A DNA stretch of 59,632 nucleotides, the filler included. It is 8 parts of 8 records of this genome, joined end to end, with 100 filler letters (N's around TTAATTAATTAA, not from the genome) between each part and the next. Parts side by side here need not be neighbours in the genome. Positions count along the whole stretch, not along the records: positions 36,844 to 47,270 come from SRR31156797_38188; 7 more parts are not named here. One strand, written 5' to 3'. This document shows positions 18,161 to 47,270 of this stretch, piece after piece (the first letter of the stretch is position 1; each line of letters begins with the position of its first letter). The notes under the pieces are model-generated. The model ran no database searches and was not told the DNA's origin. It saw nothing but the letters and a program-made list of their open reading frames with translations. A program made the translations under genes and the position numbers.

Positions 18161-18164
18161 CCCA

Positions 18165-21939: not shown

Positions 21940-22037
21940 GTTTAATCCTCCCCATTTTAATTATCGTTGATTTGATTGAAAATTAGACTATAATTCAAGG
22001 TTAGTAAAGCGATTAAAACTAACCGTATGGGTAAGCA

Positions 22038-22985
22038 ATGCTAACGCAAATCGATTTGAACCGCCTGCGCGTATTTTACCTGGTATTTCTACAAAAAAGC
22101 ACCGTTGGCGCCGCAAAAGCGCTGGCCATCTCCCGATCCGCCGTGAGCCAGCAATTGCAAAAACTGGAGCATGAAATCAATGCGCCGCTTTTCACCCGTT
22201 TGCCGAAACGCCTGGTGCCCACGGCCGAAGGAAAAAGGCTTTTTGACTTCCTTGAACCTTTCTTTCAAAATTTGGATCAGGGGATTTTAAATATTCACCA
22301 GAGCGAAAAAAAACCTGCCGGACTCTTAAAAATCGGTGCACCCGTTGAATTCGGAAAGAAATATTTTCCAAGAATTATTGCTTCATACCAGGCCGAGCAC
22401 CCCCATGTGGTGTTCCACCTGAAGCTGGGCAATCCCTCCGTGCTCCTGCCCATGGTGAGCAAGGGGACCCTTGACTTCGGTTTTGTGGATATGTTTTCCA
22501 CCAAAGCCGGGACCTATGAGCGCCTGAACCTTCAAAGCGTCGCCACCGTCTTTCAAGAGGTGATGGTTCTTGTCTGTTCGAAAACATATTATGACAAGCA
22601 TATCAAGGGGGATCATTCCTTCCTGAACCTTCAACAAAAGGATTTTATCGCCTATCAAGAAGAAGCCTTTGCTCTCCAAAGCTGGTTTCGACATCATTTT
22701 GAACAAACAACCGTTAACCTTCGCTTGAAATTGATTGTGGACAGCGTTCAGGCGGTAATCCAAGGGATTATGCAGCACATGGGTTTGGCGGTGGTGGCGT
22801 CGCACCTCGTGAGTAATGAAATCGCACAAGGGAAAATCATTCCCATTGCAACGGAAAAAAAAGATGAGGGGAATGTGATTTCCTTACTTCAACTGAAGGG
22901 AAAAATGCCCAACCTGAGAGAGAAGACATTTCAAAAACACTTTATAAAATCCATCGGAAGGATCGGCAGGGAGGGACATTCTTAA
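22038..22985 (+). CDS. LysR-type transcriptional regulator
   Basis: DLNRLRVF...SRSAVSQQLQKLE...LFTR HTH; divergent from the dehydratase gene. Confidence 0.93.
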   Translation: MLTQIDLNRLRVFYLVFLQKSTVGAAKALAISRSAVSQQLQKLEHEINAPLFTRLPKRLVPTAEGKRLFDFLEPFFQNLDQGILNIHQSEKKPAGLLKIGAPVEFGKKYFPRIIASYQAEHPHVVFHLKLGNPSVLLPMVSKGTLDFGFVDMFSTKAGTYERLNLQSVATVFQEVMVLVCSKTYYDKHIKGDHSFLNLQQKDFIAYQEEAFALQSWFRHHFEQTTVNLRLKLIVDSVQAVIQGIMQHMGLAVVASHLVSNEIAQGKIIPIATEKKDEGNVISLLQLKGKMPNLREKTFQKHFIKSIGRIGREGHS

Positions 22986-23256
22986 TTCATTGACTTGGCC
23001 GCTTAATGCATGTTTGCCAAAGTCGGTACCCATGCCAGGACAAGCCCGGCATATGTATTTTTTATCTGGTAGCTTTTCAATTTTAGGTTTACAAGTCATT
23101 TAAAATGAATTTAAATTGGCCAAAATGGCATACGACAGTAACGCCGGAAGCCGTTTCCTGCAACCGGATAATTGACAGATCCTCTATTTTACGGTTGCCG
23201 GAATTCTCGGTGTGGTTACGAAGGTCGAGAGGTGAGCACGAAATGAGGGGAATCCC

Positions 23257-25152: not shown

Positions 25153-25226
25153 TGCGGTCAGATCTCATACGGCAAAGCATGGGGACCACCTCACTTCTTT
25201 GTTCTAATAAAATAACGCCCATAATC

Positions 25227-25617
25227 TTAACCTTCCGGTCCTTTGTCCAGCACCTTTCGAACGGTTGCGGCCAGATCCCTAATCACAAAGGGCTTTATTC
25301 CCAACTTCATGGCCTGTTCTTTCGAGATCGGCAACGGCCGGCTCATCATCAACAAAAGTGTGCACCAGTTCTCGCATGGCATTTTTCCGATGAATTCTGC
25401 TGATCTCTTTCAGGTCTCGTTCCAGTACATCCAGATAGTCCTGAAGAATTCGTATACGGTATTCGTCCGAAACGTTCTGGACCTCGGGAAATCCCCCCTC
25501 CTGAAGATAGGTCCGCAAACGATTTTCAAGAATGGAACGTTTTTTCGATCCGGGTCTTTTCCGGGATCCGACATCAACACCTGCGTGATCAAGAGACTCT
25601 GTAAAACTGAATGCAAG
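25227..25617 (-). pseudogene. Mosaic remnant: pieces of two AAA-DUF4143 ATPases fused to deleted receiver-domain fragments
   Basis: FSFTESL...YLQEGGFPEVQ...ILQDYLDV, then a 71-nt patch matching the ATPase at 29242-29312, then FVDDEPAVADL and (other frame) EQAMKLGIKPFVIRDLAATVRKVLD*. Confidence 0.75.
25357..25427 (-). repeat. 71-nt direct repeat of 29242-29312 (66/71 identical)
   Basis: Direct alignment of both segments. Confidence 0.9.
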
Positions 25618-25662
25618 GCAAATGTGTCTTTCCAAAAAAGACAACATGTCTAATTGTTGGTC

Positions 25663-28590
25663 TTATAGAAGGGATATGCTCTTTATCAACTCATTGGCGA
25701 TATTGGAGCTTTCAATGCGCATGACGCTTTCTTGAGCGGTGCCGTAACTCAAGAAATTGATGCTGCCATACCAAACGATTTTTTGATCCGTGATTGCGAA
25801 TTTCTGATGGATATTGGATTTAAGAATAATACTGATACCGTTGTTTTTCAGTTCCTCCAAAACCTGCTGCAAAGCCATTCGATCTTTGGCTTTAAAATCC
25901 TCAGCCGGCCTGGTTACCACAATTGTTCGGATGCCTTTATGGAGGGCATTTCTCAGCTGTTTCAACATTTGCATGGAGCGCCTTTTTCTCACAAAGGGGC
26001 TTACAATTATAATTTCCTTCTTGGCTCCCGCGAGATCATTACTGAAAACAGGAAAAAAACTATTCTTATCAAAAATGATATCCAATGATGCTGACGGGAT
26101 ATCCTCGCCTTTTGCCTTGTATCCCATGGAGGCATACCCGGTGAGTCTTTTCTGATACATCCTTTCCAGCATCTTGATATGGATATCCACATAATCGTAG
26201 ATCTGAACTTCCTTTTTATCCGTAAACAGTCGATGAAGCCTTCCGGCATATTGCTGCAGCGTGCCTTTCCATGATATGGGCATGGCCAAAAACAGCGTAT
26301 CAAGACGAGGTTCGTCAAAACCCTCTCCGATAAAAGCCCCTGTGGCTACCAATATTAGATTCTTGTCTGCTGGTGTGTTCGTGATCTGTTTAAAGACCTC
26401 CCGTGTTGTCTTTGAGCCCATTCCACCCATCAACACAACAACATCCTGAACTTCTTTACTTATTTTCTTTGCAAGCAATTCAACGTGAGCGGTTCGCAAT
26501 GTCAGAACAATGCAGTTTCTACCACGTTTATGGCTCTCTAGAACGTCTTCGACAATTTGTTGATTCCGGGCGCCGTTATCCACAACTTCGGAATACAACT
26601 CCTGGATGGAAACATCCATTTCGTCACTATTTAAAGGAATTCTCAAGGATGTAAACCGTGGAATAATGTAGTGCTCAAAAGGTCTTTTCTCAGCCTGTTT
26701 TTTGGCATCATCTCGATATCGTATTGGGCCGCAATGCATAAATAGTATGGGATGATGTCCATCCTTTCGTGTCGGTGTTGCTGTCAGGCCATAAATATAT
26801 CTTGCGTTTGTGGCTTTCAGAATACTTTCATAGCTGAAGGCTGACGCGTGATGACACTCATCGGCGATGACCATCCCGTAGTCTTTAACACAATCCTTTA
26901 CCTCTCCCTTCCTGTTGAGAGATTGCATGACGGCAATATCAACAATACCACTCAGGGCCTTTTTCCCTCCGCCCAGCTGGCCAATTAGGCTTGCTTTTTT
27001 CTTCCGCCCTCTTTTCTTGCCTGCTGTAATAGGCATTTCCGGCAATGTTTCGTTGATAATCAGAAAATCAGATAGACTTTTTCGCCATTGTTGGAGCAAA
27101 TTGATTTTATCCACTAAAACAAGCGTGTTGACCTTTTTTTCGGCGATCAGTTTGATGGCTACGACGGTTTTTCCAAAAGCGGTTGTCCCGGAGAGTATTC
27201 CGGTATCATGCTCCAACAGCTTTTCCAGTGCCAGGGGTTGTTCGTCTCTTAAATGGCCATTGAACGCTACATCTATTTTTTTCCCACAATGGGTCTTATC
27301 CTTAAAATGAACATCCACACCGTATTGTTCCAATTCAGAAAAAAGGTCTGTTTCGCACCCTCTTGGCAAACATAGATAATTCGTTGTTTCATCCGCGCAC
27401 GAGATGATCGGTGGATGCCCGTACGTTGATAACCGCATGGCCTGGTGTTTGTAAAACATTGGGTTCTTGAAAGACGCCAATCTCTTCAGGCGGTTCAATG
27501 CCCTTTGGGAGATATTTCTTTTTGGAATAAACAACATGTTTGCTTTCACGACGTCAATTTGTTTCGGAAAATCGCTCTTTTTCAGGCGGACTGGGTGGTG
27601 TGTCTCCCATGGCTTTTGAGTGTTCTCTTCGTCGATTTTCAAGATCCCCAGTTCATGGTCATGACAAAGTGCCTTTGTGAGATTTTCGATTCGATCTTCG
27701 GGAATCTTTTGAACCGACGATAAAAACGCCCATTGGTCACGGTAGGATTCAAACCCTTCATTGATAAATTCGCTGTTGTTGTTCTTCCTTGCGGATTTTT
27801 GGAATGGCAGAGCAATCAGATTTCCAAAACCTCCCTTGGGCATCGTGTCCTGACTGGGAAACAATCTGTCATAAGATTTGAAAGGTATTTCATGTCTTCG
27901 GTTCATGGAAAAGGTCAAAATGGCGGCGCCGAACTTTCTGGCAGCCACGGCAGACAATCGGTTTTCAAAGAAAAACCAGAGGTGCCCGCCATTACCGGAT
28001 TGTGATCGCTCCGCTGCCACAGGGATATCAAACTCGGTGCAAACCTCTCTCACTGTAGTGACATCGTCTTGCCAGCCTGCTTCATCAAAATCCATTGCCA
28101 GGAAATGGCAGGTCTCATCCGGAAGCATGGGATAGATGCCGGCAACCATATTCCCTCTCAGATGGTTTTCAATAACATGTTCATCCAACGCGGCATAGTG
28201 CTGATTGGCGCATTTGGAGCAGGGCGTTTTTGGCTTGCCGCACAATCCAACCTGCCATTGATTCAGACAAACAGGCGAATACCCCGATGCGGCCTTCTTT
28301 TTGTTTTCCCATTTCTTCGCATATACATCATCACGACCTTTGAAAAGTGACATGAATAGTTTGATTTTTGAAATTGAATCCGACGAGTTGTTGACATCTG
28401 AAAACGAGGTGCTTTCAGTCGGTTCATCTTCGAGTATTTCTTTTTCGGTGGCAGATTTAGGCATGGCGTTTTCAGATGGCTTGGGTTTCATCTTCCCAAG
28501 CAGCGCTTTCAGCCTGCTGTTTTCTTTTATCAAGCGGGTGTTCTCACTTAATAAAAGATTGTATTTTTCAAGCAACTCTTTGTAGTCCAT
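25663..28590 (-). CDS. Fusion of archaeo-eukaryotic primase (TOTE-type AEP), SF2 DExH helicase and PLD-family nuclease
   Basis: AEP motifs LAMDFDE, ERSQSGNGGHLW, DRLFP; helicase motifs GTTAFGKT, DECHH, TAT, GEGFDEP, QQYAGRLHR; PLD motif HQKFAITD...GSINF. Confidence 0.85.
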   Translation of the reverse strand: MDYKELLEKYNLLLSENTRLIKENSRLKALLGKMKPKPSENAMPKSATEKEILEDEPTESTSFSDVNNSSDSISKIKLFMSLFKGRDDVYAKKWENKKKAASGYSPVCLNQWQVGLCGKPKTPCSKCANQHYAALDEHVIENHLRGNMVAGIYPMLPDETCHFLAMDFDEAGWQDDVTTVREVCTEFDIPVAAERSQSGNGGHLWFFFENRLSAVAARKFGAAILTFSMNRRHEIPFKSYDRLFPSQDTMPKGGFGNLIALPFQKSARKNNNSEFINEGFESYRDQWAFLSSVQKIPEDRIENLTKALCHDHELGILKIDEENTQKPWETHHPVRLKKSDFPKQIDVVKANMLFIPKRNISQRALNRLKRLASFKNPMFYKHQAMRLSTYGHPPIISCADETTNYLCLPRGCETDLFSELEQYGVDVHFKDKTHCGKKIDVAFNGHLRDEQPLALEKLLEHDTGILSGTTAFGKTVVAIKLIAEKKVNTLVLVDKINLLQQWRKSLSDFLIINETLPEMPITAGKKRGRKKKASLIGQLGGGKKALSGIVDIAVMQSLNRKGEVKDCVKDYGMVIADECHHASAFSYESILKATNARYIYGLTATPTRKDGHHPILFMHCGPIRYRDDAKKQAEKRPFEHYIIPRFTSLRIPLNSDEMDVSIQELYSEVVDNGARNQQIVEDVLESHKRGRNCIVLTLRTAHVELLAKKISKEVQDVVVLMGGMGSKTTREVFKQITNTPADKNLILVATGAFIGEGFDEPRLDTLFLAMPISWKGTLQQYAGRLHRLFTDKKEVQIYDYVDIHIKMLERMYQKRLTGYASMGYKAKGEDIPSASLDIIFDKNSFFPVFSNDLAGAKKEIIIVSPFVRKRRSMQMLKQLRNALHKGIRTIVVTRPAEDFKAKDRMALQQVLEELKNNGISIILKSNIHQKFAITDQKIVWYGSINFLSYGTAQESVMRIESSNIANELIKSISLL

Positions 28591-28665
28591 ACTTTACCAT
28601 AAAAATTGAGTGCCCTACTGATGGATCTATGTATGAAGCAGTGTCGCCTTTTCTCTGTTATGGTT

Positions 28666-29898
28666 TTAAGACCACAAAAGACCAAAAGGGACTGCCCACA
28701 AGTTATCACCGAAAGAGGCGGGAAATTCCCCCGTATAGAGAATGATACCGATAAACGTCCGGCTTTTTGTAAGCTTCTTCTGGAACCATCGCATATGGTT
28801 AAAATCTTTTTTTCCGACAGCAGAACCGGCTTTGATCTCAATGCCAAGCAATGCATTATCTTCCCGTTCTATTAAGAAATCGATTTCCCGTTTTTCACGG
28901 TCACGGTAGTGAAAAAGTTCATAGCGGCCATCTCCAGCGTCAACTTGTGCCGTAATTTCATTGAAGGCAAACGTTTCAATCAGTTTTCCGGAACGTTCGG
29001 TATCCAAGCGTACTTGGTCCATTTTCAAGCTGAGCAGGGATGTCATCAGACCGCTGTCTACCATGAAGAGCCTGCTTTGTTTACCGACACGGGCATAGTC
29101 GGTTTTCGTCCAAGGGTATACGCGCTCCACCATATAAAGGGTCTCCAATGCGTTGATGTAGCCTACGATTGTGGGGCGCCGGATGGAAAGACCGGAGCCG
29201 ATGGCGGATAGGTCCATGAATTTTCCCGACCATGCTGCGAGAGTGTGTACCAGTTCTTTCATGGCATTTTTCCGATGAATTCTTGTGATCTCTTTCAGGT
29301 CTCGTTCCAGTATGGCATTAACATAGTCGGTGTGCCATCGCTTTCGACCACGATCCTGAAGGTGCATCGGCTCCGGGAAGCCGCCTCTGAATGCGATTTC
29401 CAGGAGGGCATCACGATCATAGTGGATATGGCTGCGAGAGAACGATTGATTAAACGCGGAATCAATAAACCGGGAAGCAGTTTTTTCGATTTCTCCCTGG
29501 GCGAGTGGGTGTAAGCGGATTTTGGCGATTCGTCCGGCTAGAGATTCTCTAACGGTTGGAAGCGATTGAATGTTGGTGGATCCAGTCAATAGATACTGCC
29601 CGGGATTTGTGTCTTCGTCTACAGCTTTCTTAATTGCCGAAAGCAGGGATGGAATGCGTTGCACTTCGTCAATAATCAATGTTTTGGTGCTGCGTTTGAT
29701 GAATCCTTCCGGATCGTTGCCAGCAGCTTCTCTAAGTGTACCGTCATCAAGGGTCCGGTATTCCGTCTCATCGGATTCCAGTTCACGTGCCAGTGTGGTT
29801 TTACCACATTGCCTTGGACCGCTCAGCAGCAGTACGCGCCTTTCCAGCATGAGCTGTTTGATGGTCGCCTTTTGCCACCTTGGGTAACGTTCTATCAT
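28666..29898 (-). CDS. AAA+ ATPase (AAA_14) with DUF4143/PD-(D/E)XK C-terminal domain; likely start MIERYP
   Basis: GPRQCGKTT, IIDEVQ, LLTGS, ESLAGR, GGFPE, YRDREKREIDFLIE...IEIK. Confidence 0.9.
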   Translation of the reverse strand: MIERYPRWQKATIKQLMLERRVLLLSGPRQCGKTTLARELESDETEYRTLDDGTLREAAGNDPEGFIKRSTKTLIIDEVQRIPSLLSAIKKAVDEDTNPGQYLLTGSTNIQSLPTVRESLAGRIAKIRLHPLAQGEIEKTASRFIDSAFNQSFSRSHIHYDRDALLEIAFRGGFPEPMHLQDRGRKRWHTDYVNAILERDLKEITRIHRKNAMKELVHTLAAWSGKFMDLSAIGSGLSIRRPTIVGYINALETLYMVERVYPWTKTDYARVGKQSRLFMVDSGLMTSLLSLKMDQVRLDTERSGKLIETFAFNEITAQVDAGDGRYELFHYRDREKREIDFLIEREDNALLGIEIKAGSAVGKKDFNHMRWFQKKLTKSRTFIGIILYTGEFPASFGDNLWAVPFGLLWS

Positions 29899-29912
29899 TT
29901 CGGAATTCCCTG

Positions 29913-30004
29913 TCGCCAAATGATTATTATTAGTACCGCTATTTTTGTATTTTAAGATCCGCAGTTTTACAATTATTATTACCGCGTTTTAGCATTTTTT
30001 TTAA
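29913..30004. repeat. Four degenerate direct repeats with 23-bp period upstream of the ATPase
   Basis: YCGC cores at 29913, 29936, 29959, 29982, each followed by an AT-rich tract. Confidence 0.6.
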
Positions 30005-30340
30005 ATCGGAATACGGCCCGGATAGTTGGGAGTTTTGGTTTGCGTATTTCTCTGGGGGGATTACTTCTTGGAAACGCAGATGATGCTCATGAAGGTCCAA
30101 AAGGTAAATCGTCGGTGGGCACTTTTCAGCACCTTAAAACAAACATTCACCGTTCATTTTTTTGGTTTAAACGAGAGAGGAGAGAGCGCCAGCTCAAACG
30201 TTAGGTGGGCTTTCGGACACTCTATAATATTTAATACTGATCAATATTTGATTAGACTGATCTTGAATTAAGAAAAGATTCTAAAAACAGGAACATGATT
30301 TCAGGCACTTACAGACGTTGATTTCTGCCTAAAATCCGAG

Positions 30341-30362
30341 TGGGGGTCACATGGGGGTCACA
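30341..30362. repeat. Perfect tandem 11-mer TGGGGGTCACA x2
   Basis: Seen directly in the long intergenic region. Confidence 0.85.
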
Positions 30363-30670
30363 AAGCGAAAAAACGGTTGAAAACAGATTCTTGTTTGTGA
30401 TTTAAGTGATTGTTTTATCATGAATTATAGAAAAAACTCGGCATCTCCAACCGGAAAGTCAGCACCTTCAACTTCCTCGAAACTTTTCTAATGTGATCCA
30501 GTCATTTTTTCAAGGATCTAATGGAAACCCCATACAGAAGTGTGTGGATTGGTTGAGTGCGGGAGGGTAATGAGTGGAATCTCGTTGCATTTTGATCATG
30601 TGAAGGGTATTTTGAAAAGGTAGGTAAATGAACCTGTTTGCCAATAGTCGTTAGAGAGGAGTATTTCGTC

Positions 30671-30907
30671 ATGGCGCCATCGGTGAATGAACAGTACATC
30701 GTCGACGAAAAGGGAAACCCAACAGCGGTTATCCTCCCAATAAAAGAATACTTGAAGATGCTTTCCATCATGGACGAAGTCGAAGACCATAAGGAAAGCA
30801 GGATTCTTTCTCAATCTTCGGAATTTAAGAAGCTTGTCAAAAAAGGGTTGGACGATATCAGTTCAGGCAGGACAAAGCCCTGGAAGGAAGTCTGGGATGA
30901 ACTATGA
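30671..30907 (+). CDS. Type II antitoxin (likely start MAPSVNE)
   Basis: QYIVDEKGNPTAVILPIKEY N-terminus, acidic C-terminus GRTKPWKEV; overlaps the toxin start. Confidence 0.75.
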   Translation: MAPSVNEQYIVDEKGNPTAVILPIKEYLKMLSIMDEVEDHKESRILSQSSEFKKLVKKGLDDISSGRTKPWKEVWDEL

Positions 30908-31247
30908 TGTTCACCTAACTGAGACCTTCCAGAAATCGGTCAAGGCACTGAAAAAGAAATATCCCAAAATCAAGAAAGACCTCCTGCGTCAAATCAAAGT
31001 ATTAGAGGAAGATGCGTCTGCCGGAGATCCCATTCCGGGTTGGAACAAAGAGATATGGAAAATTAGGGTCGCCAGCTCTGATGTAAAGAAGGGAAAGCGG
31101 GGCGGCTATCGGCTCATCTACTCTTGGAAGGCGGGCGAAGTGGAAATCTATCTTCTGGTGGCCTATTTCAAGGGCGAAAAGACAGAAATCACCAAGAAGG
31201 AGATAGAGACCTTGCTTAAAAAGCTCAACCGGGAATTAGGATGGTAA
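30897..31247 (+). CDS. RelE/ParE-superfamily toxin (likely start MNYDVH)
   Basis: TFQKSVKALKKKYP, WKIRVASSD..KGKRGGYRLIY, LLVAYFKGE. Confidence 0.85.
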   Translation: MNYDVHLTETFQKSVKALKKKYPKIKKDLLRQIKVLEEDASAGDPIPGWNKEIWKIRVASSDVKKGKRGGYRLIYSWKAGEVEIYLLVAYFKGEKTEITKKEIETLLKKLNRELGW

Positions 31248-31373
31248 AAAACTTAACGCATTTTAGTTTATTTTTTCTGGCTTAGCGACCCTGTTTAGCA
31301 CCTACCATATTTCCGGCAAAAACCAACCGTGAATCCGAAAGAAAGTAAAGAATCCGGGTCCAGAGGACCCGGC

Positions 31374-36843: not shown

Positions 36844-36866
36844 CAGGGAAAACATTTATTGCTCGT
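36844..36866 (+). repeat. Terminal direct repeat (23 nt), left copy
   Basis: CAGGGAAAACATTTATTGCTCGT, identical to the last 23 nt of the same contig. Confidence 0.97.
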
Positions 36867-37746
36867 TATCGGGGTTATGATTATATGGGGAGTCAACTTC
36901 TCCGCTATCAAGTTGGGAGTCAGTCAATTAGACCCTTTTCTTATTGCAGCGGCGCGATTCTTCTTAGCCACGTTCCCCATCATATTCTTCGTGCGTAAAC
37001 CCAAGGTTCCAATGCGTTACTTCATCGCTTACGGATTAGTCTTTGGTACAGGTATCTGGGGCATGGCCTATTGTTCTATCGCTTTTGGGCTTTCATCCGG
37101 TATGGCATCTGTACTGTTGCAGCTTGATGTACTGACCACCATTGCTGTTGGTGCTCTGTTATACAAAGAAAAAATCACCAAACAAATGTGGATGGGAATT
37201 GTTGCTGCGTTGCTAGGTTTGGCATTATCCATTGTCTACACCAACGGAAACATCACTTTGCTAGGCATCGTATTCATTAGTATTTCAGCCATATGCTGGC
37301 CTTTGACTGGCGTAATTATCCGTCACTCAGGCACCCAATCACCGTTCGCGTTTAATATCTGGGGCATGTTGTTTGCGCCCGTACCATTGGTACTGTTAAG
37401 CATTTCAATCAATGGGCTTACTGGGCTGGTTGAAACCTATCACCAATGGAACAATAGCGCGTGGTTCTCAGTACTGTTTCAGGCTTACCCAACCACGCTT
37501 TTCGGTTATTGGATTTGGAACAAAATGATTTTGACCTATCCAATGTCAAAGCTTGCACCACTAACCCTACTAACCACCGTGTTTGCTTTGCTATCTGGTT
37601 ACATATTCTTTGGTGAAACACTGTCTACCGTGCAGTGGATTTCTTGTTCTCTGTTTCTTGCGGGGATTACGGTGGTGCTTTATCCAGCAAAGCCTGAGTT
37701 CGAGAAACCGACGAATACAACAGCACCAATAACTCTGAATGAATGA
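36844..37746 (+). CDS. EamA/DMT family exporter; its ATG lies at the other end of the contig (47245)
   Basis: IWGVNFSAIKLG, AARF, two EamA repeats; joining the ends gives MQGKHLLLVIGVMIIWG in frame. Confidence 0.9.
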   Translation, partial: QGKHLLLVIGVMIIWGVNFSAIKLGVSQLDPFLIAAARFFLATFPIIFFVRKPKVPMRYFIAYGLVFGTGIWGMAYCSIAFGLSSGMASVLLQLDVLTTIAVGALLYKEKITKQMWMGIVAALLGLALSIVYTNGNITLLGIVFISISAICWPLTGVIIRHSGTQSPFAFNIWGMLFAPVPLVLLSISINGLTGLVETYHQWNNSAWFSVLFQAYPTTLFGYWIWNKMILTYPMSKLAPLTLLTTVFALLSGYIFFGETLSTVQWISCSLFLAGITVVLYPAKPEFEKPTNTTAPITLNE

Positions 37747-37758
37747 GTTATTGTTAAA

Positions 37759-37781
37759 GAGAGTCAGACTTCCTGGCTCTC
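37759..37781 (+). terminator. Hairpin after the EamA gene
   Basis: GAGAGTCAG-acttc-CTGGCTCTC. Confidence 0.6.
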
Positions 37782-37886
37782 AACGTTTTATAATCCCTGT
37801 TAACTATTAAACGGGAGCTATACCAACAATTAGTCCTAGTTGCCTGGTTAAACTGGTGTTGTTGACCATTCTAAGGAACACGCAGT

Positions 37887-38729
37887 TTGCTTAAACAACT
37901 TCACTTTGACAATGTCAATCTTCAAATCGACACCTTAGGTGGGCAAGTGTGCACGTTTGAAGTCAATAATAACCCTGTATTCCACCCTATCAGCGCAAAT
38001 TCAGACGGCCCCCAAACTGGCGGCCTGTTCCCTATGGTTCCAATAGCAAACCGAGTAAAAGAAAACGCATTTTTGACTGAAGGAAGAATTGTCCAACTTC
38101 CTAAGGTAGATTGGGACCAAGAATTTTTCCTTCATGGTGACGGATGGAAAAAAGTGTGGACCGTTCAAAGTGAACAGCAAAATGAAATAACACTCACCCT
38201 AGAATCGAATATCAGTGAGGACATTCACTATCAAGCAACGCTTAACTTTAAAATAACTCATTCTCAATTGATGGTTACGTTGAAGGCAAAGAACCTATCT
38301 TTACACCCATTCCCTTTTAATATTGGTCTTCATCCGTTCTTTTGCTCTAGTAATAAAAGTGATTTGCGTATCCCTCACTTAGGTTACTGGCCTGAAGCAG
38401 AAAAGCACTTACCATTACCTTATAAGGAACACGTTCCCAAACAATATAATTTCAAAGTCTCAAAATTGCTTGATCAAGGGTGGATAAACCACTGCTACAA
38501 GCTCTGTTTGTCTGTTACTGAACTGATAAATCATGACATGGGTTATAAGGTAGAAATAACGCACAGCAGCGATTATCTAACCATCTATCAACCAGAACGC
38601 TCAGCGCCCTTTGTTTGTATTGAGCCTCAATGTTTTCCTATTAACGCACATAACTTTATGAACGTTCCATCCATTGCCCCAGGAGAAGAACAGCAAATTA
38701 CAATGAAGATAAATGTAAAAGATATTTAG
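37887..38729 (+). CDS. Aldose 1-epimerase family protein (YphB-like)
   Basis: FPMVPIANRV, LHGDGW, GLHPFF, FVCIEPQ. Confidence 0.88.
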   Translation: MLKQLHFDNVNLQIDTLGGQVCTFEVNNNPVFHPISANSDGPQTGGLFPMVPIANRVKENAFLTEGRIVQLPKVDWDQEFFLHGDGWKKVWTVQSEQQNEITLTLESNISEDIHYQATLNFKITHSQLMVTLKAKNLSLHPFPFNIGLHPFFCSSNKSDLRIPHLGYWPEAEKHLPLPYKEHVPKQYNFKVSKLLDQGWINHCYKLCLSVTELINHDMGYKVEITHSSDYLTIYQPERSAPFVCIEPQCFPINAHNFMNVPSIAPGEEQQITMKINVKDI

Positions 38730-39922
38730 AGGTTTTCTAATCCTTGCTCAATAAACAGATAGCCAATACCTTTCAGTAATTCCGAATCAGATAAATCACC
38801 AAATCGAATACTGGCTTTTTGCTCTTTCACCTTCACCACATTGCCTTCAAAAGGATTGTACAACGCTTGCTCTTTTATAACTTCCAGCCAATCATTCCCA
38901 AGCTGAGTTGCTTGCCCATAAAGAACAATATCGTTCACGTTCATCGTAACAAGAAAGTTGTAAATACTTATTCCTAAAGTGCTCGCCGCTTTATTGCATA
39001 CTCCGGTCACTAGAGGATCCTTATACCGGTATAGCTCAGCACACTGTTCGAAGTTGAGATGCTCTAGATGTATTGCGCCTTGGGATAGTCTATTTTTAGA
39101 CAGTTTACGAATATCCGTTAGCATTGCCTTGGTTGACGAAATCGTTTCAAGGCAACCGTAGCGACCACAAGAACACTTACGTCCATCCTGATCAATAATA
39201 GAATGTCCTATTTGACCACTTCCATACAGTGGTCCACGGAACACTTGGTCATCAATTAAAAACGAAGAACCAATCCCATAATCGATATTGATGACACAAA
39301 AATCTCGCGTATGAGCTGGGGTTAACCATTTTTCCGCTAGAGCAAGCATCACACAATCGTTGTCAACCAGAACTTCTGTATCTAACTCTTCTTCCAATAT
39401 GTACTTAAAATCAATAGGTGTATCCCAATCTACCTGAGGCATAAACATTGATGTGCCGGAGTGGATATCCACTTGCCCATGCAATGCTAAAGCAATGTTG
39501 AACTTCCCAATTCCAAGGCTTTTAACACACTCTCGATACACACCGAGTACATCTTTAACTAAGTGCTCTGGAAGTGTTGGAGATATCTCCCAAATTTTAC
39601 GCTCTAAGAGTACTTCCATTTTACCGTTCACCACCAGCGCAGAAATTTGACTTGGGGTGATATGTAAGCAAATGATCGGTGTTAGGTTAGGTGATATTTG
39701 ATACCCACCGCTGGAATTTCCTCTCCCTTTATGCTCAGTATCAACATGTTCTACCCAACCTTTATCTTCCAAAAAGGTTAAGATTTTACTAATGGCGGGA
39801 ATACTTAAATCCAGATAACGAGATAAGTGAGATTTGGAGAGTTGATGATATTGATAAAGGAGCCTAACCGTCAGCTTTGCATTAAACTTTCTTACTGACT
39901 GATTGTTCATGCCTTTCAGCAT
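38726..39922 (-). CDS. ROK family transcriptional repressor (YphH-like)
   Basis: N-terminal HTH LSIPAISKIL, DNDCVMLALAEKW, GQIGH..CSCGRYGCLE. Confidence 0.92.
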   Translation of the reverse strand: MLKGMNNQSVRKFNAKLTVRLLYQYHQLSKSHLSRYLDLSIPAISKILTFLEDKGWVEHVDTEHKGRGNSSGGYQISPNLTPIICLHITPSQISALVVNGKMEVLLERKIWEISPTLPEHLVKDVLGVYRECVKSLGIGKFNIALALHGQVDIHSGTSMFMPQVDWDTPIDFKYILEEELDTEVLVDNDCVMLALAEKWLTPAHTRDFCVINIDYGIGSSFLIDDQVFRGPLYGSGQIGHSIIDQDGRKCSCGRYGCLETISSTKAMLTDIRKLSKNRLSQGAIHLEHLNFEQCAELYRYKDPLVTGVCNKAASTLGISIYNFLVTMNVNDIVLYGQATQLGNDWLEVIKEQALYNPFEGNVVKVKEQKASIRFGDLSDSELLKGIGYLFIEQGLENL

Positions 39923-39949
39923 ATTAGGCTCCTTTTATTATTGTAAGAA

Positions 39950-40951
39950 TTAACCCTTTTCAGCGAGTCTCTGACGATATTGGTCAGCACCAACCGCCAA
40001 TAGAAGAATGCCACCTCTGACTAAATATTGATAGAAAGAATCCACATTCAATAAGTTAAGTGCGTTTTCGACCGTGCCCATAATAAGAACACCAACCGCA
40101 ACACCGATCACGCTAGCTTTACCGCCATTAAGTGATACACCACCTAAAACACATGCAGAAATAACACTCAATTCAAAACCTAATGAAGCATTAGGCTGAC
40201 CGCTGGTTATACGCGATGCCAGAATAACACCAGCAATAGCACATATAATGCCTTGAATAGCAAAGTTAGCGATTCGAACATTATCAACATCAACACCAGC
40301 GAGTTTTGCAGCATCACTGTTACCACCCACCGCTAACGCGTTTCTGCCGTAGCTGGTATTTTTCAATAAGAATCCAAACAAAGCGAAACACAAAATTGTG
40401 ATAACAATTGGTGTCGGAACGCCCAAAATCGTTGACTGACCTAGCATAAAGAAATTCATATTAACAACACCGACAGCATTACCGCCGGAAATGATATAGG
40501 CCCCACCGCGAACAATCTCCATCATAGCAAGCGTTGCAATAAGTGCGTTAACACGGACTTTTGTCACGAAAATTCCGTTCATTAATCCGATAAACATTCC
40601 CGCAACCAACGCGCCAATGATCCCGAGGAAGAAGCTATCAGTGGCGTTAACAATCAACGCTGCCAGAACCCCGTAAAATGCGACCTGAGAACCTACCGAT
40701 AAATCAAAGTCCTTAGAAGCAAGACAAAACATCATCGTACACGCGACCATGCCAATCTGAGATATCGACAGGCCAAGACCAACCATATTTCTTAGAGAAA
40801 AGAAGTACGGCACAAATACTGAAAGTGCGATAAATAGCAGGATGTAAACAACAATAATATTGAAGTTTTCACTATTACGAATTGCCGTCCATGTTGTACT
40901 GTTTTTTTTGTCTGAAACCATAACTTCAGCCGTTTTATTTAGTGCTGTCAT
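39950..40951 (-). CDS. Monosaccharide ABC permease (AraH-like)
   Basis: MFCLASKDFDLSVGS, YGRNALAVGGN, SRITSGQP, ISACVLGGVSL. Confidence 0.9.
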   Translation of the reverse strand: MTALNKTAEVMVSDKKNSTTWTAIRNSENFNIIVVYILLFIALSVFVPYFFSLRNMVGLGLSISQIGMVACTMMFCLASKDFDLSVGSQVAFYGVLAALIVNATDSFFLGIIGALVAGMFIGLMNGIFVTKVRVNALIATLAMMEIVRGGAYIISGGNAVGVVNMNFFMLGQSTILGVPTPIVITILCFALFGFLLKNTSYGRNALAVGGNSDAAKLAGVDVDNVRIANFAIQGIICAIAGVILASRITSGQPNASLGFELSVISACVLGGVSLNGGKASVIGVAVGVLIMGTVENALNLLNVDSFYQYLVRGGILLLAVGADQYRQRLAEKG

Positions 40952-42453
40952 ACAGTCATCTCCTGTTCAGGAAAGGCTTTAGAAAGTATGCTTTCCTCTT
41001 CATATTCTTCACGGTTAAATTGGGCAGATATTTGATTCTCTCGCATCACATACAAGCGATCAGTGATTCCCATAATTTCAGGCAACTCACTTGATATAAC
41101 TATGATAGAGATGCCCTGATTCGCGAGATCGTATAACACGTTATATATCTGGTTTTTTGCCGAAACGTCGATCCCCCTTGTAGGCTCATCAACAATCAAC
41201 ACATTGATTCTGGATTCGGCTAACCATCTGGCTAAGATAACTTTTTGTTGGTTACCACCAGACAGAAACTGGATTTCTTTCTGTAGAGAAGGGGTTTTTA
41301 TATCTAGCGTGCTAACAAAATGTTCAGCAATGTCCATCTCTTTAGATAAATTAAGAATACCCCCTAACTTCCAAAAATTACGACGGCTACTTATAGAGAT
41401 ATTTTCCCAAACCGATCGGAAAGTGATATTGCCCTCTTTCTTCCTGTCTTCAGAACAATAAAGAATCCCATTTTTAATCGCCTTCTTCGGTGTTAGGTTA
41501 GGCAGTGATTTGTCGTTCAAAGTCGCGTCAATTTCTTTACAAGACATCGCACCAATAATTGATTTCATCAGTTCGGTTCGGCCTGATCCCACCAATCCAA
41601 AGAAACCCAGAATCTCACCTTTCTTCACATCAAACTCGACAGTTTCGGGAAATTGGGTACTGACAATATGATTTAGAGCAAAGTTGGTTTCACCTAATTC
41701 TCTTGGAGAGTAGTCGTACATATCACCGATATTACGTCCAATCATCTTCTCTATGATGGTTTGACGATCGATGTTATCCAAATCGTCATACGAAATAACG
41801 TGTTTACCGTCTTTCATAACCGTACACGATGTACATATTTCGAAGATTTCAGCCATTCTATGGGAGATATAAATCAGAATTTTACCCTGAGACTGTAACT
41901 GTTTTATCACTCTGAATAATACTTCTGTTTCTGCTGCAGAAAGACTACTGGTCGGTTCATCCAGAGCAATAATATTCGCATCGAGAATCAATGCTTTTGC
42001 AATTTCAACCATCTGCTGCTGCCCCATTGATAATTTAATAACCTTATCGGTAGCGGCAAACGTCAGACCTAACTCTTTTAGCTGTTGTGTGGCTAACTGA
42101 TTCATCCTATTCCAATCGATTTTCCCATTTTTAGAAGGCATACGACCTAAGAAGATATTTTCAGCAACAGTCTGTTCAGGAACGAGTTGTAACTCCTGGT
42201 GGATAATAGCGATACCATTCTGTATTGCTTCTCTGGGTGAACGAAAATTCACAGCTTGGCCATTGACAATCACTTCGCCAGAGCTGGCTGGATAAATGCC
42301 ACCTAGCACTTTCATCAACGTACTTTTACCTGCGCCATTAGCGCCTATCAATCCATGAACTTCGCCATGACCAATTGAAAAATTGATAGAATCAAGAGCC
42401 TGTACACCGGGAAAACTTTTTGATACATCACGAAACTCAAGTGTGTTCTTCAT
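40948..42453 (-). CDS. Monosaccharide ABC ATPase, two nucleotide-binding domains (AraG-like); likely start MKNTLEF
   Basis: GANGAGKST, LDEPTSSL, LSGGNQQK, VDEPTRGIDV. Confidence 0.93.
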   Translation of the reverse strand: MKNTLEFRDVSKSFPGVQALDSINFSIGHGEVHGLIGANGAGKSTLMKVLGGIYPASSGEVIVNGQAVNFRSPREAIQNGIAIIHQELQLVPEQTVAENIFLGRMPSKNGKIDWNRMNQLATQQLKELGLTFAATDKVIKLSMGQQQMVEIAKALILDANIIALDEPTSSLSAAETEVLFRVIKQLQSQGKILIYISHRMAEIFEICTSCTVMKDGKHVISYDDLDNIDRQTIIEKMIGRNIGDMYDYSPRELGETNFALNHIVSTQFPETVEFDVKKGEILGFFGLVGSGRTELMKSIIGAMSCKEIDATLNDKSLPNLTPKKAIKNGILYCSEDRKKEGNITFRSVWENISISSRRNFWKLGGILNLSKEMDIAEHFVSTLDIKTPSLQKEIQFLSGGNQQKVILARWLAESRINVLIVDEPTRGIDVSAKNQIYNVLYDLANQGISIIVISSELPEIMGITDRLYVMRENQISAQFNREEYEEESILSKAFPEQEMTV

Positions 42454-42504
42454 GCGTTTGTTCCTCCGTGAAATCGGGGCAGTAACTGCCCCGATAATTC
42501 TCAC

Positions 42505-43494
42505 TTACAAGCCTAAATCTTTGCGTACCGCTTCATAGTTATCACGAGTTGCAAGATAACCCGATGTATAAACGAGTTTTTCAGGTTGAACACCATTCGC
42601 TACCCAGTTATACATATTGATTGATGTCTGATAACCGTGAGCTTTCGCGCTGAGAATAATCGTCCCATAAAATCCGGTTTCTACAGGTTTACGGAATTCG
42701 TTAATCGCTTCTTCGGTACCATTAATACCGAGACCTATGATGTTTCCTGAATCAATACCGTTACCTTCTAGCGCACGTACGCCACCAATAACCACCTGAT
42801 CATTCATCCCATACACAATCCATTTCTTGTATTGGCCTTTCTGTGTAATAAGACTGTTTGCTGCGTTAAATGCCTGCTCGGTGTTATCAAGACGATGTGG
42901 CGTCTCAAATATGTTTTCCGAAGGATAGTTTGATTCATTAAGAACGTCTGTCGCACCTTTTGTTCTTTCAAATGCTGTGGGAAGCTGTTTATACGTTAGC
43001 GCCATTACGCCGACATCTTTAGGGTCCCAGCCTCTGGCTTCAATTTCACCAAGCAATGCAGTACCAACTTCGCGGCCAATGTTATAAGCAGATATCCCCA
43101 TATGAACAACGTCTTCAATAGGATTACCTTTCCCATCGACTAATCGGTCATCGACCGACATCAGCTTCAAGCCATTGCGTTTTGCTGAAGCTACTACCGC
43201 AGACCCTAGCTTCACGTTAGGGACACACACGATAACGCCGTCAGCTTGTTGAGTACCTAAGTTATCTAGTGCTGACATCAGCTTTTGACCATCTTGTGCA
43301 CCAATTTTAATTAGCTCAAAACCTTTCTCTTTTGCGGCCACTTCAGCGAACTTCCATTCATCCTGAAACCAACCAGCTTCTGGCTGTTTAACAATAAAAC
43401 CTATCTTTTTAGTTTCAGCGGCAGCGTTTAACGAAGCAGAGCAAATAGAGGTTACTAATATTACTTTGCCTAAGTTCTTGTAGAGTTTTTTCAT
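42505..43494 (-). CDS. Periplasmic sugar-binding protein (AraF-like)
   Basis: Signal peptide; KIGFIVKQPE..WFQDEW, MSVDDRL, GMND..V.GGVRA resemble the L-arabinose-binding protein. Confidence 0.88.
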   Translation of the reverse strand: MKKLYKNLGKVILVTSICSASLNAAAETKKIGFIVKQPEAGWFQDEWKFAEVAAKEKGFELIKIGAQDGQKLMSALDNLGTQQADGVIVCVPNVKLGSAVVASAKRNGLKLMSVDDRLVDGKGNPIEDVVHMGISAYNIGREVGTALLGEIEARGWDPKDVGVMALTYKQLPTAFERTKGATDVLNESNYPSENIFETPHRLDNTEQAFNAANSLITQKGQYKKWIVYGMNDQVVIGGVRALEGNGIDSGNIIGLGINGTEEAINEFRKPVETGFYGTIILSAKAHGYQTSINMYNWVANGVQPEKLVYTSGYLATRDNYEAVRKDLGL

Positions 43495-43639
43495 AATTTA
43501 TCCTATCCATGTAGACCATATCGGTGATGCATACGGCTTCTTATAATTAATATTGCTCACCTGAAACGGGATATTTGTGTATCACTGTTATTGTGTAAAA
43601 AAGTTTAAAATAGTGTTGTTATTCGGTTCGGATGATCTG

Positions 43640-43669
43640 TCACGCTATTTAGTAATCTTTGTTAAGTAA
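43640..43669 (-). promoter_or_regulatory. Putative ROK operator with adjacent CRP-like half site, upstream of the binding-protein gene
   Basis: TCACGCTATTTAGTAATCTTTGTTAAGTAA, 26/30 identical to 47141-47170. Confidence 0.6.
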
Positions 43670-43729
43670 TCACCTCCTCCATTTAATATATTGCTGAATA
43701 AACCTCACCCCTTACCCAGCTTCTCGCGG

Positions 43730-43754
43730 GAGGCACTATGTTAAGCAGTGCCTC
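43730..43754 (-). terminator. Hairpin after the yphG-like gene
   Basis: GAGGCACT...AGTGCCTC stem. Confidence 0.55.
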
Positions 43755-43765
43755 TAATTTTGGAA

Positions 43766-46700
43766 TTACATAAACTGGGTAAGAATTGGGTAGAGTGTGT
43801 CTATCAATGCTACTTTATCGTGGCTCGGATCCAGCCCCAGAACAGCCTGTCGCGCACTATCGACTTCCGCATTCCCCTCATCTGTTAGAACGCACAAACC
43901 TACGCGTGCCAGATATTGAACATATCGACAATGCAACTGATGATTGCGAACAATGTCACGATCGAAAACAATTAACTCAGGCAATGAAACCGCAAAGAAA
44001 TCTTCTTTTACGTCTTGACCAAGATGCTCTTCCGCCCACTGAACCATAATATCTAATCGATGCTTTGCTTCAGCGAAATCACCTTGTTTAGCCAACCCAA
44101 GAGCCTGAAATAGCAGGTAATCTGCAGGCTGGTCATTGTAGTAACGGCTTTCAGTTAGCTCACTGGAACCACAAGTTGATTTGGACCAGTACATAGCAGC
44201 ACTGTCACTATCGTTTTGTGATTGAGCAATGCAGCCAAGCAAGAAGTACAAATCGTTGTCAGTTTGTCCGACTAAGCGACCTTCACTTAAATTGTCCGGA
44301 TAGGTTAATGCTTGCATCAAACACTCTTTAGACTGTTCAAATTTTTCATCAACAACGTATTGAACCGCCTGACGTATAAGTGCATTACGATACTGCCCGG
44401 TGACTTTTCCTTCGCCGCCCTCCCAAGGGTGGAATTTTTTAGATTGAAGAAGGTTTAACGCCTTCGTTGATTCACCTGCAATATTGAGTAGTGCTATCCA
44501 CTCTGAACTTAAATCATCCCTACGCAGTACCACATCCTGATGACTGTTTAATAGCGCTAATCGTTCTTCAACTGATTTACCGACGAGCTTATTCAGATGA
44601 TCAAGCTCGAACAAAACACGAGCGTCTTGAGGGTCTAATCTCCACGCTTCATTCATATGAGAAGCTGCGGTCTCAAAATCCTGTTGTTTATTAGCGAAGT
44701 AAACCGATAGATTCCTATGACATTCTTTAAACTCAGGTCTTTTAACCAACGCACCCTGCCACAATTCAACTGCTTTCTCGTATGATTTTTTAGAGTAGTA
44801 AAAACAACCCAAAAGATAATCAGCGAATGGGTATCCCGAAAGCTGTGTTAGAGCAAACCATTCTATGTAAGCATTTGGGAACAAGACATTTTTTGAAAAA
44901 TTCTCTTCGGCTTTCGCGACTAACTGATCTTTGCCTGTTTCTGTTAAAGCCGCTTTGATAAGCAAAGCATTTGCGCCACACGCTTCGATCCAATCGATAA
45001 CTTCAACAGCAAACTCATTAAGACCAATCGATTGATACAAACCAGAAATATGAATGGCATTCGCCAAACGTCCCTGACAGAGTTCCGTAAAGGCTCTTTT
45101 CGATTCTTCGGTACCATCAATGCGCGCCTTTTCAGCGTATAAGCCATATGCCAGTGGAAATTTCTCTATTGCCGTCGATACGTGCGCAAGGGCGTCCTCT
45201 TTTTTACCTAATTTTTCAAGTGTCGCTGCTTTAATGAAATAAGCCTGATAACTGGTTCCGTTTAACTCAATGACCTTGTCAACTTCTTCCAACGCTTCAG
45301 CGTAATGTTGTTGAATGAAAGATACTCGGCTTGCTCCTAACAGCCCGACATCACGGCAATTTCCGCTCCAAGTCGATTTATAAAAGTCAGCATAAGCAGC
45401 ATCCCATTCACCGAGCTTTTCATAAACGCAGCCACGTAGGTAACTCGCCTTACCACATGCCGGGTTTTTGTTGTATCTGTGTGCTCGTTCAATAGAACGA
45501 TTCAGAAGTGATAATGCTCTATCAAAGTCGCAACGTTGGAACTCACGCGTCGCTAGCGCAAGGTTACAACGATAATCTAACGGATCTCTAAGCAGCGCTT
45601 CCTGATAATAGTCTTCTGGCTTACCACTTGCGTGATGATATTGCTCTAAATGTTGACCAATTAAATATAATTCATCCACAGATGCCACGAGCTTAGGTTC
45701 AAGTGGCTCGTCTGCAGGGTCAGGTTTTGCGGCTTCTGCTTGATCCAATTCGGTATAACTCAGCAATTGCTGACCATGCTGAGAAATCACCGTCATAGTT
45801 AATTTCTCTTGTCCAGAGTACTGCATCGTATCTTGATCGACCTGACATGGATCTAATTCAATATTACGACTAACCAGAACTTCTGAATCCGTTCGAATAA
45901 TGACACTACACCCTCCAATATTTGATATAGCGTAAATACCCCACTCTACAGAATCACCCGTCCTTTTTAGCTTAACCGCCACATCTGTATTTGCCTGATG
46001 GACTTCTCCTAACTGGCTATACGGCAAGAAGTTTTGTACAAAACTTTTCTCTTCGTTCGAATCTATCCAAGTGAAGTCCGGCTGGTTGTCAGTGAATACC
46101 CCTGTCATCAGCTCAATATAAGGTCCACACGAATCGGTTAGGTTTTTGTCCCAGGCTAACCCGAAATCACAGTTGCCCCATGTCCACTGCTTTTTACCGG
46201 GAGAGATATGATGATTGGCGACATGAAGTAAGCCACCTTTTTCATCATGGCTATATGCGCCAACAAAGTTATAGTCAGAAGACGCTGCCATATAGGAGGT
46301 CGGAACCGGCAAATTCTTATATCGAGAAATGTCCGTACCCGGTGAGTAATCCACTTTATAGTAAGTCCCTCTTGCAATTGGGAACTCACTTACATCTCGC
46401 TTACCATGATCATAAACTGCGGATACATCAGGCGGAAAAATACTCTGATGATCATCGCCGCCTTTCACAGCAGGATTCGCCCACCACAAGAACTGACTTG
46501 GTGTTGGGTTGCCGTTGTATACTTTACCTGTAATCTCGATTAGTGCTTTATGGGGATAAAGTTTAAATCCAGCACTAATTTGCAGACCGTACATATGTTC
46601 AACTTCACCAAGCCAAACTTCCGCACTACCATCGTCGTTAGTCCGGATATTCACATCAACAGGCATATAAGTTGTAGGACGGTGGTGTTGGGGCCAGTTA

Positions 46701-47053
46701 AACTCTATGCCGCCAGAAATCCAAGGACCGATTAAACCAACAAGCGCTGGCTTAATAACATCATTACAATAAACAAAATCACGCTGGTTAATCTTGTCAT
46801 ACGCTTTATGGATTCGGCCACCAAGCTGTGGAAGTAACATGACTTTAATGTAGTCATTCTCTAGGAAAACAGCATTATACTCCTGATCCACCCACTCATC
46901 CTGAATCGAATCAATAACGCCGTAAGGGTAAACTGCACCTGAAGAACCTTGATAAACACGCTTTTCCAAAAACAGTGGATTAGTATCAACAGGGCCGGTT
47001 GGGTAAGTCGGCAAAGACACACTTTCCGACCATACTTTGACATTATTTCCCAT
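43766..47053 (-). CDS. DUF5107 + TPR protein (YphG-like)
   Basis: KRVYQGSSGAVYP, VIKPALVGLIGPWISGGIEFNWPQHHRP, FHPWEGGEGK; long TPR region. Confidence 0.9.
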   Translation of the reverse strand: MGNNVKVWSESVSLPTYPTGPVDTNPLFLEKRVYQGSSGAVYPYGVIDSIQDEWVDQEYNAVFLENDYIKVMLLPQLGGRIHKAYDKINQRDFVYCNDVIKPALVGLIGPWISGGIEFNWPQHHRPTTYMPVDVNIRTNDDGSAEVWLGEVEHMYGLQISAGFKLYPHKALIEITGKVYNGNPTPSQFLWWANPAVKGGDDHQSIFPPDVSAVYDHGKRDVSEFPIARGTYYKVDYSPGTDISRYKNLPVPTSYMAASSDYNFVGAYSHDEKGGLLHVANHHISPGKKQWTWGNCDFGLAWDKNLTDSCGPYIELMTGVFTDNQPDFTWIDSNEEKSFVQNFLPYSQLGEVHQANTDVAVKLKRTGDSVEWGIYAISNIGGCSVIIRTDSEVLVSRNIELDPCQVDQDTMQYSGQEKLTMTVISQHGQQLLSYTELDQAEAAKPDPADEPLEPKLVASVDELYLIGQHLEQYHHASGKPEDYYQEALLRDPLDYRCNLALATREFQRCDFDRALSLLNRSIERAHRYNKNPACGKASYLRGCVYEKLGEWDAAYADFYKSTWSGNCRDVGLLGASRVSFIQQHYAEALEEVDKVIELNGTSYQAYFIKAATLEKLGKKEDALAHVSTAIEKFPLAYGLYAEKARIDGTEESKRAFTELCQGRLANAIHISGLYQSIGLNEFAVEVIDWIEACGANALLIKAALTETGKDQLVAKAEENFSKNVLFPNAYIEWFALTQLSGYPFADYLLGCFYYSKKSYEKAVELWQGALVKRPEFKECHRNLSVYFANKQQDFETAASHMNEAWRLDPQDARVLFELDHLNKLVGKSVEERLALLNSHQDVVLRRDDLSSEWIALLNIAGESTKALNLLQSKKFHPWEGGEGKVTGQYRNALIRQAVQYVVDEKFEQSKECLMQALTYPDNLSEGRLVGQTDNDLYFLLGCIAQSQNDSDSAAMYWSKSTCGSSELTESRYYNDQPADYLLFQALGLAKQGDFAEAKHRLDIMVQWAEEHLGQDVKEDFFAVSLPELIVFDRDIVRNHQLHCRYVQYLARVGLCVLTDEGNAEVDSARQAVLGLDPSHDKVALIDTLYPILTQFM

Positions 47054-47140
47054 CGCTATGCCTCAAAAGTAAATTTCTTTAGTGAACAAATTTGATAAGG
47101 AAATGTTATGTGCTTATTGAGGCCGTGAATTACCGATGGT

Positions 47141-47170
47141 TCACGCTATATATTAATCTATGTTTAGTAA
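47141..47170 (-). promoter_or_regulatory. Putative ROK operator with adjacent CRP-like half site, upstream of the yphG-like gene
   Basis: TCACGCTATATATTAATCTATGTTTAGTAA, 26/30 identical to 43640-43669. Confidence 0.6.
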
Positions 47171-47247
47171 ACGTTTAGGACATACAGTCCTGATTTCATC
47201 GCTCAAGTAATCCTCTGAACATAATTCAGCCATCAAGAAATATCATG

Positions 47248-47270
47248 CAGGGAAAACATTTATTGCTCGT
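47248..47270 (+). repeat. Terminal direct repeat (23 nt), right copy, preceded by the EamA ATG at 47245
   Basis: ATG-CAGGGAAAACATTTATTGCTCGT. Confidence 0.97.

Follow-up and report, generated by a model that had tools for sequence, protein, structure and literature searches.

The DNA analysed here (the window; 59,632 bases) consists of eight contigs spliced by N/TTAATTAATTAA spacers, one of which, a 10,427-nt contig at positions 36844-47270, carries a sugar-uptake locus together with a gene for an EamA-family transporter and is the subject of this study. An earlier annotation made from the letters alone (the original prediction) had described this contig as a circular module, and had proposed that it was an excised circle mobilised in trans, a collapsed tandem amplification or an assembly-graph loop. 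The data gathered below make it very probable that this contig is no circle but comes from a Vibrio-like chromosome, as a linear stretch present in single copy, and that the circular module is an assembly-graph effect.

Genes of the contig and resemblance to the yph cluster

Seven genes were confirmed on the contig by Pfam and NCBIfam (Table 1), matching the expected series of EamA, epimerase, ROK, three ABC components and a YphG-like gene. The intergenic gaps measure 140, 27, 271 and 191 nt, in line with the claim that none reaches 300 nt. No replication, partition, mobilisation, integrase, recombinase or transposase domain was detected in the seven genes with either library, as had been stated for replication, integrase and transposase genes.

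A full-length YphG homologue (DUF5107 plus TPR) adjoining a ROK regulator and a sugar ABC importer defines the locus as yph-type. Its counterpart in E. coli K-12, yphBCDEFGH (b2544-b2550), is an uncharacterised sugar ABC-transport cluster, with which the contig shares the YphG homologue (48% identity over 1092 aa), a YphH-type ROK regulator (42%), an aldose epimerase that is 28% identical to YphB, and a same-class ABC importer whose permease and ATPase are 33-37% identical to YphD and YphE. In contrast to the K-12 cluster, the contig has no YphC dehydrogenase, similarity of its binding protein to YphF is not detectable, and its permease and ATPase score as AraH and AraG. Indeed, BLASTP of the seven contig proteins against YphF and YphC gave no match at E<=1e-3, and no NCBIfam equivalog came near its cut-off for the binding protein. 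Gene order differs as well, since the regulator lies at the end of the operon on the contig, whereas in K-12 it is divergent from yphG, and the contig adds the EamA gene. Of 117 papers that mention yphG or yphF, none of the ten listed was shown as assigning a function to the yph cluster, and the sole paper that mentions DUF5107 was unrelated.

The importer itself looks hybrid: its permease scores above the AraH cut-off, its ATPase falls 0.6 bit under the AraG cut-off and its binding protein is not YphF-like. Inferring from family membership only, the locus would be a ROK-repressed ABC uptake system for an unspecified sugar, accompanied by an aldose epimerase and a YphG-type DUF5107/TPR protein, and it would adjoin an EamA exporter under MocR control. 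The 30-nt AT-rich motif that precedes the binding-protein gene and again the yphG-like gene (Table 1) is a candidate operator of the ROK regulator; in the Agarivorans locus L002, one stretch of 29 nt is 93% identical to each copy.

Table 1. Coordinates of the features of contig 36844-47270, counted along the window
Feature	Position	Strand	Evidence or remark
23-nt terminal overlap, start copy (EamA codons 2-9)	36844..36866	+	identical to 47248-47270
Last 30 nt of the 37-nt exact repeat R, the k-1 letters common to record 2	36844..36873	+	1 difference between record 2 bases 1-37 and 36844-36880
EamA-family (DMT) transporter gene, ATG supplied by the repeat	36844..37746	+	PF00892 4e-30; 83-84% aa identity to MocR-adjoining orthologues
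Aldose 1-epimerase family gene, weakly YphB-like	37887..38729	+	PF01263 3e-31; 28% identity to E. coli YphB
ROK-family transcriptional regulator, YphH-like	38726..39922	-	PF00480 and N-terminal MarR-type HTH; 42% to YphH over 401 aa
Sugar ABC permease, AraH-like	39950..40951	-	NF008441 AraH 461.9 bits (cut-off 378); 33% to YphD
Sugar ABC ATPase, AraG-like	40948..42504	-	NF008442 AraG 688.4 bits (cut-off 689); 37% to YphE
Periplasmic sugar-binding protein	42505..43494	-	PF00532 and PF13407
Candidate operator: AT-rich motif of 30 nt upstream of the binding-protein gene	43640..43669	.	87% identical to 47141-47170
DUF5107 and TPR protein, 1,095 aa, E. coli YphG homologue	43766..47053	-	PF17128 6e-57 and TPR repeats; 48% to YphG over 1092 aa
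30-nt AT-rich motif, second copy, upstream of the yphG-like gene	47141..47170	.	conserved in L001
Novel junction inside the contig, where the yphG-upstream region (U) meets the displaced EamA promoter copy	47184..47187	.	L001 yphG-side homology ends at ~47184-47185, EamA-side homology begins at ~47187
P_B, a displaced and incomplete copy of the EamA promoter with the start codon region	47187..47270	+	matches the EamA-upstream region of L001 (74%) and G304 (79%), not the yphG side
First 30 nt of the inferred 37-nt exact repeat R, the k-1 letters common to record 8	47241..47270	+	record 8 departs with a C behind 47240
23-nt terminal overlap, end copy	47248..47270	+	identical to 36844-36866

Terminal overlap, assembly graph and neighbouring contigs

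The observation that first suggested a circle was reproduced in full. The first and last 23 nt of the contig are identical, and joining them leads from the ATG at 47245 through the common 23 nt to an in-frame continuation at 36867 (MQGKHLLLVIG...), with which the EamA proteins of relatives likewise begin. Chance is ruled far out as the source of an identical 23-mer at both termini. This was the only one of the eight contigs of the window with a terminal direct overlap of at least 8 nt, as the original prediction had stated, and no end-to-end overlaps were found between different contigs among the eight.

The run considered a possible source of the contig (X1) is kept as Logan contigs (1.53 million contigs, 915 million letters) and holds one identical to 36844-47270 (10,427 nt, 0 differences, depth 2960.2). 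According to the Logan preprint, assembly is performed at k=31 with Cuttlefish2/Minia3, no 31-mer occurs twice within an accession, a 30-mer repeated at both ends identifies circular contigs, and the encoding of abundances carries an error of 5%. Like such circular contigs, the contig studied here has the same letters at both ends and belongs to the same assembly collection; unlike them, it overlaps itself by 23 nt instead of the required k-1 = 30 nt, and its end 30-mers also occur in two other contigs. The suggested check, whether 23 equals the k-mer overlap of the assembler, therefore has a negative outcome. Nor does the contig form an isolated cycle in the graph, since two further contigs of X1, records 2 and 8, start and end, respectively, at its own end bases.

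Record 2 (7,695 nt, depth 3074.8) starts at 36844, covers 36844-36880 with one difference and is unlike the contig thereafter, diverging after EamA codon 12. Record 8 (21,105 nt, depth 3076.1) shares its last base with the contig, at 47270, and can be aligned from there back to 47190 (81 nt) with five differences and one inserted C; this C follows 47240, at a distance of precisely 30 nt from the end. Beyond the match, record 8 continues as ...AAAATTGTATCTGTA, the second of two conserved boxes in the MocR-EamA intergenic region, seen in five Vibrio genomes. These edges delimit a 37-nt exact repeat, R, composed of 47241-47270 followed by 36867-36873.

A toy graph at k=31, for which the contig sequence was set between random flanks forced to differ at the repeat edges, accounted for the overlap quantitatively. 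The order flank-R-module-R-flank yielded unitigs of 37, 3030, 3030 and 10,427 nt, the last being identical to the contig and overlapping itself by 23 nt, whereas an isolated circle yielded a sequence of 10,434 nt with a 30-nt overlap. For any exact repeat of length L (30 to 60) at this k, the overlap of the contig ends equals 60-L, and L = 37 gives 2x30-37 = 23. Of the three options raised in the original prediction, the assembly-graph loop was essentially right.

In the mechanism that we favour, a segment of ~95 nt, made up of EamA codons 1-12 and the ~59 nt of promoter that end at them, would be present twice in direct orientation in the source organism. One copy would be native, between a gene for a MocR-type regulator and EamA, and the other, displaced and partial, would lie just past the upstream region of the yphG-like gene. 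A k=31 de Bruijn graph is blind across a 37-nt exact repeat, and the assembly would break there into four contigs: the flank towards MocR, the module, the opposite flank and the 37-mer as a contig of its own. With k-1 = 30 repeat letters left at either end, the module contig would acquire the 23-nt overlap seen at first. The chromosomal order would accordingly read from the 21.1-kb contig (MocR-type gene, promoter) through R into EamA...YphG-like, the upstream region and the partial promoter, and through a second R into the 7.7-kb contig of unrelated sequence.

The depth of module and flanks points in the same direction. Taken as contig mean k-mer depths, not raw reads, the ratio of module to flanks is 0.96 (2960 vs 3075 and 3076), which lies inside the 5% error stated in the preprint and equals a single chromosomal copy, thereby favouring the linear reading. 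The profile at the ends is also explained: the depth of the last bin (3704) is exactly that of the contig plus 81 nt of record 8, and the excess in the first bin fits 30 nt of a record ~5,600 deep (~2x), which we infer to be the 37-mer repeat unitig. One X1 record was classed as fitting two places and one as running over its ends, and other X1 contigs of low depth touch the stretch. An idea that the three contigs, which sum to 39.2 kb at ~3000x, represented a pool of clones was withdrawn; the 915 million letters are contig letters and set no bound on read depth.

The depth ratio bears directly on the second option of the original prediction, a collapsed tandem amplification with at least two head-to-tail 10.4-kb copies in the chromosome, which it leads us to reject. 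A promoter-to-U tandem duplication would create just the kind of junction between U and the promoter that is found at ~47185-47187, and a two-copy array has the same 31-mers as a single copy. Two copies would, nevertheless, raise the depth of the module to ~2x, and it is not above that of its flanks. Moreover, the repeat copies differ at 7 of ~95 positions, so that any duplication must be old, and the remnant of a second copy is just ~95 nt. An amplified array is therefore extremely improbable.

A real 10.4-kb circle beside a module-less chromosome, present at about one per chromosome or in a subpopulation and generated by loop-out in the ~95-nt repeat or awaiting integration, is harder to dismiss on the graph, as its 31-mer content does not differ from the linear one. 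Homologous recombination between direct repeats whose exact core is 37 nt long may loop out the DNA between them, and the core found here could allow it; the join also yields an intact EamA reading frame. Against this, in a population sequenced to ~3000-fold depth, a non-replicating molecule would not be expected to stay at 0.96 copies per chromosome, a value that would require a coincidence, and the contig carries no replication, partition, mobilisation or recombinase gene. The joined EamA gene would keep ~59 nt of promoter, without most of the conserved boxes. No similar molecule emerged from megablast of the contig against plasmid records (0/72,556) or phage records (0/50,697), and an exact 50-mer over the internal junction had 0 matches in viral_contigs. 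Such a circle is unlikely, and mobilisation of a circular module in trans, as originally proposed, is not supported, given the overlap of 23 instead of 30 nt and the sharing of both ends with two contigs of equal depth.

Chromosomal context and the MocR-EamA promoter

The placement of the source among the Vibrionaceae in the original prediction was borne out. The best matches of the DUF5107 protein were in L001, a 566-kb contig of a Vibrio sp. metagenome-assembled genome (91% aa identity), and in an Agarivorans chromosome (69%), all others reaching at most ~54%, and bases 1-10341 of the contig are colinear with L001 at 85% nt identity. In L001, the same genes sit between a MocR-type gene (GntR HTH plus aminotransferase fold), divergent from EamA, and a small open reading frame (ORF) followed by a GH3 gene. 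No integrase or transposase was found among the ORFs of at least 70 aa scanned in 10 kb and 3 kb of the L001 flanks. Colinearity with this MAG contig and the lack of such genes in the scanned flanks both argue for a linear chromosomal piece. A second EamA-family gene is convergent with the MocR-type gene in L001 (L001:21689-22630), and the regulator thus lies between two EamA genes.

The complete seven-gene arrangement is rare, as it was found in one of 401 family genomes and one of 285 genus genomes searched, both times in the genome to which L001 belongs (G001). Several other genomes of these sets hold the ROK-ABC-yphG part alone (69-73% nt identity) or EamA alone. The two units are conserved separately in relatives, and therefore the segment is read as a stretch of chromosome in which two such units adjoin, with no conserved cassette. 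In a scan of metagenome contigs with the YphG-like protein, at least 593 relatives were recovered in 600 stretches, and among the matches listed none exceeded 54% aa identity. An exact look-up of five of the seven contig proteins in a collection of 15 billion proteins found none of them.

MocR regulators commonly pair with EamA/DMT genes. The contig carries no MocR gene, and the original prediction had linked its end to MocR-controlled EamA promoters; this link was right, since a MocR-type gene is divergent from the EamA orthologue in 5/5 relatives, namely L001 and four further genomes, which were the four best EamA-only matches of the family-genome search. In these five Vibrio genomes, the ~100-nt MocR-EamA intergenic regions carry two conserved ATTGTA...CTGRTT boxes. 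The boxes, AAATTGTACTGRTT and AAATTGTATCTGTACTGRTT, stand ~20 nt apart (L001:20235-20334, L177:2485-2587, L178:2479-2581, L179:926-1028 and L180:2461-2563), and look like a direct-repeat operator for the MocR-type regulator. We propose, on sequence grounds, that EamA of the source organism would be MocR-controlled. Placing record 8 before the contig and record 2 behind it restores the MocR-promoter-EamA arrangement of all five relatives, which further favours the linear reading.

As in the divergent MocR-type/EamA pairs, the 21.1-kb neighbour contig of X1 carries the second box, within the 30 nt that are visible beyond the match. The contig itself differs from those pairs in having no MocR gene and in carrying at its end a promoter copy with half of that box: P_B retains just the right half, GTCCTGATTT. 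The box CATACAGT to which the original prediction had drawn attention was consequently reinterpreted. It is not itself the conserved box; it spans the novel junction, and only GTCCTGATTT, on the right, stands as the remnant of that box. The novel junction itself had been expected near 47171-47190 and was located by homology to L001 at about 47185-47187, with the upstream region of the yphG-like gene on its left and the last ~59 nt of the EamA promoter on its right. The two promoter copies form an imperfect direct duplication of ~95 nt, covering the EamA promoter and the first 12 codons, with 7 differences (~93% alike) around the 37-nt exact core; it is absent from L001. Either an old segmental duplication that was later truncated or the scar of a single-crossover integration could have produced it.

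Both versions of the promoter and start region could, alternatively, come from two co-occurring strains, one with the MocR promoter joined to record 2 and the other with a self-closed module. The eight contigs of the window range in GC content from 0.34 to 0.49 and carry genes of unrelated bacteria, including NapB and cytochrome genes, peptidases sorted by the type IX secretion system (T9SS), type II secretion genes and a TOTE-type conflict gene, so that the source is a mixed community; a mixture of strains in X1 would suit this, as would the further low-depth contigs that touch the stretch. The proposal needs equal depths in both strains (2960 vs 3075), however, and would still leave a cyclic or tandem module in one of them. 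In addition, run X2, from an independent study (P2), contains the module at ~99% identity and ~5x depth, and the two variants at 47240 are of similar depth there as well (3.61 of 6.54), from which it follows that the two repeat copies coexist outside the possible source run as well. Two strains are thus a very improbable origin. The parts left uncovered in runs X2-X4 include 36844-37191 and, in X3, 47112-47270, and no conclusion was drawn from these holes.

Several points weigh against a linear chromosomal piece. The linear order, a module-less chromosome plus a circle, and a two-copy tandem array gave identical 31-mer content with the same script; hence the k=31 graph is the same for the linear and circular states, and the linear order is derived from the equal depths, the conserved synteny and parsimony. 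Both the 37-nt repeat unitig and the site of record 2's single mismatch are inferred. No genome of the same species was present among the 401 family and 285 genus genomes, the best being 85% identical, so that the context is not directly visible. Finally, the continuation of record 2, of which 30 nt beyond the repeat are visible, resembles nothing in the L001 flank. With these points included, a linear, single-copy chromosomal piece bounded by repeats remains by far the reading that best accommodates the depth, the neighbouring contigs and the synteny.

Mobility and significance of the locus

The contig shares with integron cassettes, IS26 translocatable units and loop-out circles a gene set that is bounded by direct repeats and has no replication functions of its own. 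It differs from them in having no recombinase, attC-like site or insertion sequence copy and in a copy number equal to that of its flanks. The flanking repeats are those of the imperfect promoter duplication, and neither the contig nor the scanned L001 flanks hold an integrase, recombinase or transposase that would mark an integrative element. Likewise, the absence of replication, partition and mobilisation genes and of similarity to known plasmids separates the contig from plasmids.

Two other contigs of the window carry genes of separate interest. On contig 17352-31373, at 25663-29919, the gene for a 975-aa protein with TOTE archaeo-eukaryotic primase, ResIII helicase and PLD nuclease domains adjoins a gene for an AAA_14/DUF4143 ATPase, forming a defence-like pair on a contig unrelated to 36844-47270. 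On contig 11428-17251, two large secreted peptidases (one M28, the other lectin-like plus papain-like) are encoded at 11753-17034 and end in type IX secretion C-terminal sorting domains, which assign that contig to a Bacteroidota-type organism, unlike the Vibrio-like contig studied here.

For assemblies of the Logan type at k=31, a terminal self-overlap shorter than k-1 marks a contig that lies between two copies of a short exact repeat and not a circular molecule. Application of the rule that the overlap equals 2(k-1) minus the repeat length would remove false "circular elements without replication genes" from scans of such data.

As to mobility of the locus, the ~95-nt repeat may have been left behind by a Campbell-type integration or an old segmental duplication and may let the sugar locus and EamA loop out together as a non-replicating circle, a proposal that we consider decidedly unlikely. 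If it were true, the looped-out circle could be lost, or could be passed on by transformation and reinserted by homologous recombination, so that the locus would behave like a cassette without a dedicated recombinase. Under the linear chromosomal reading, the biology that is left is modest: the yph-like sugar-uptake locus is patchily distributed, and it occurs here in a Vibrio-like organism, together with a small displaced copy of a MocR-type promoter.

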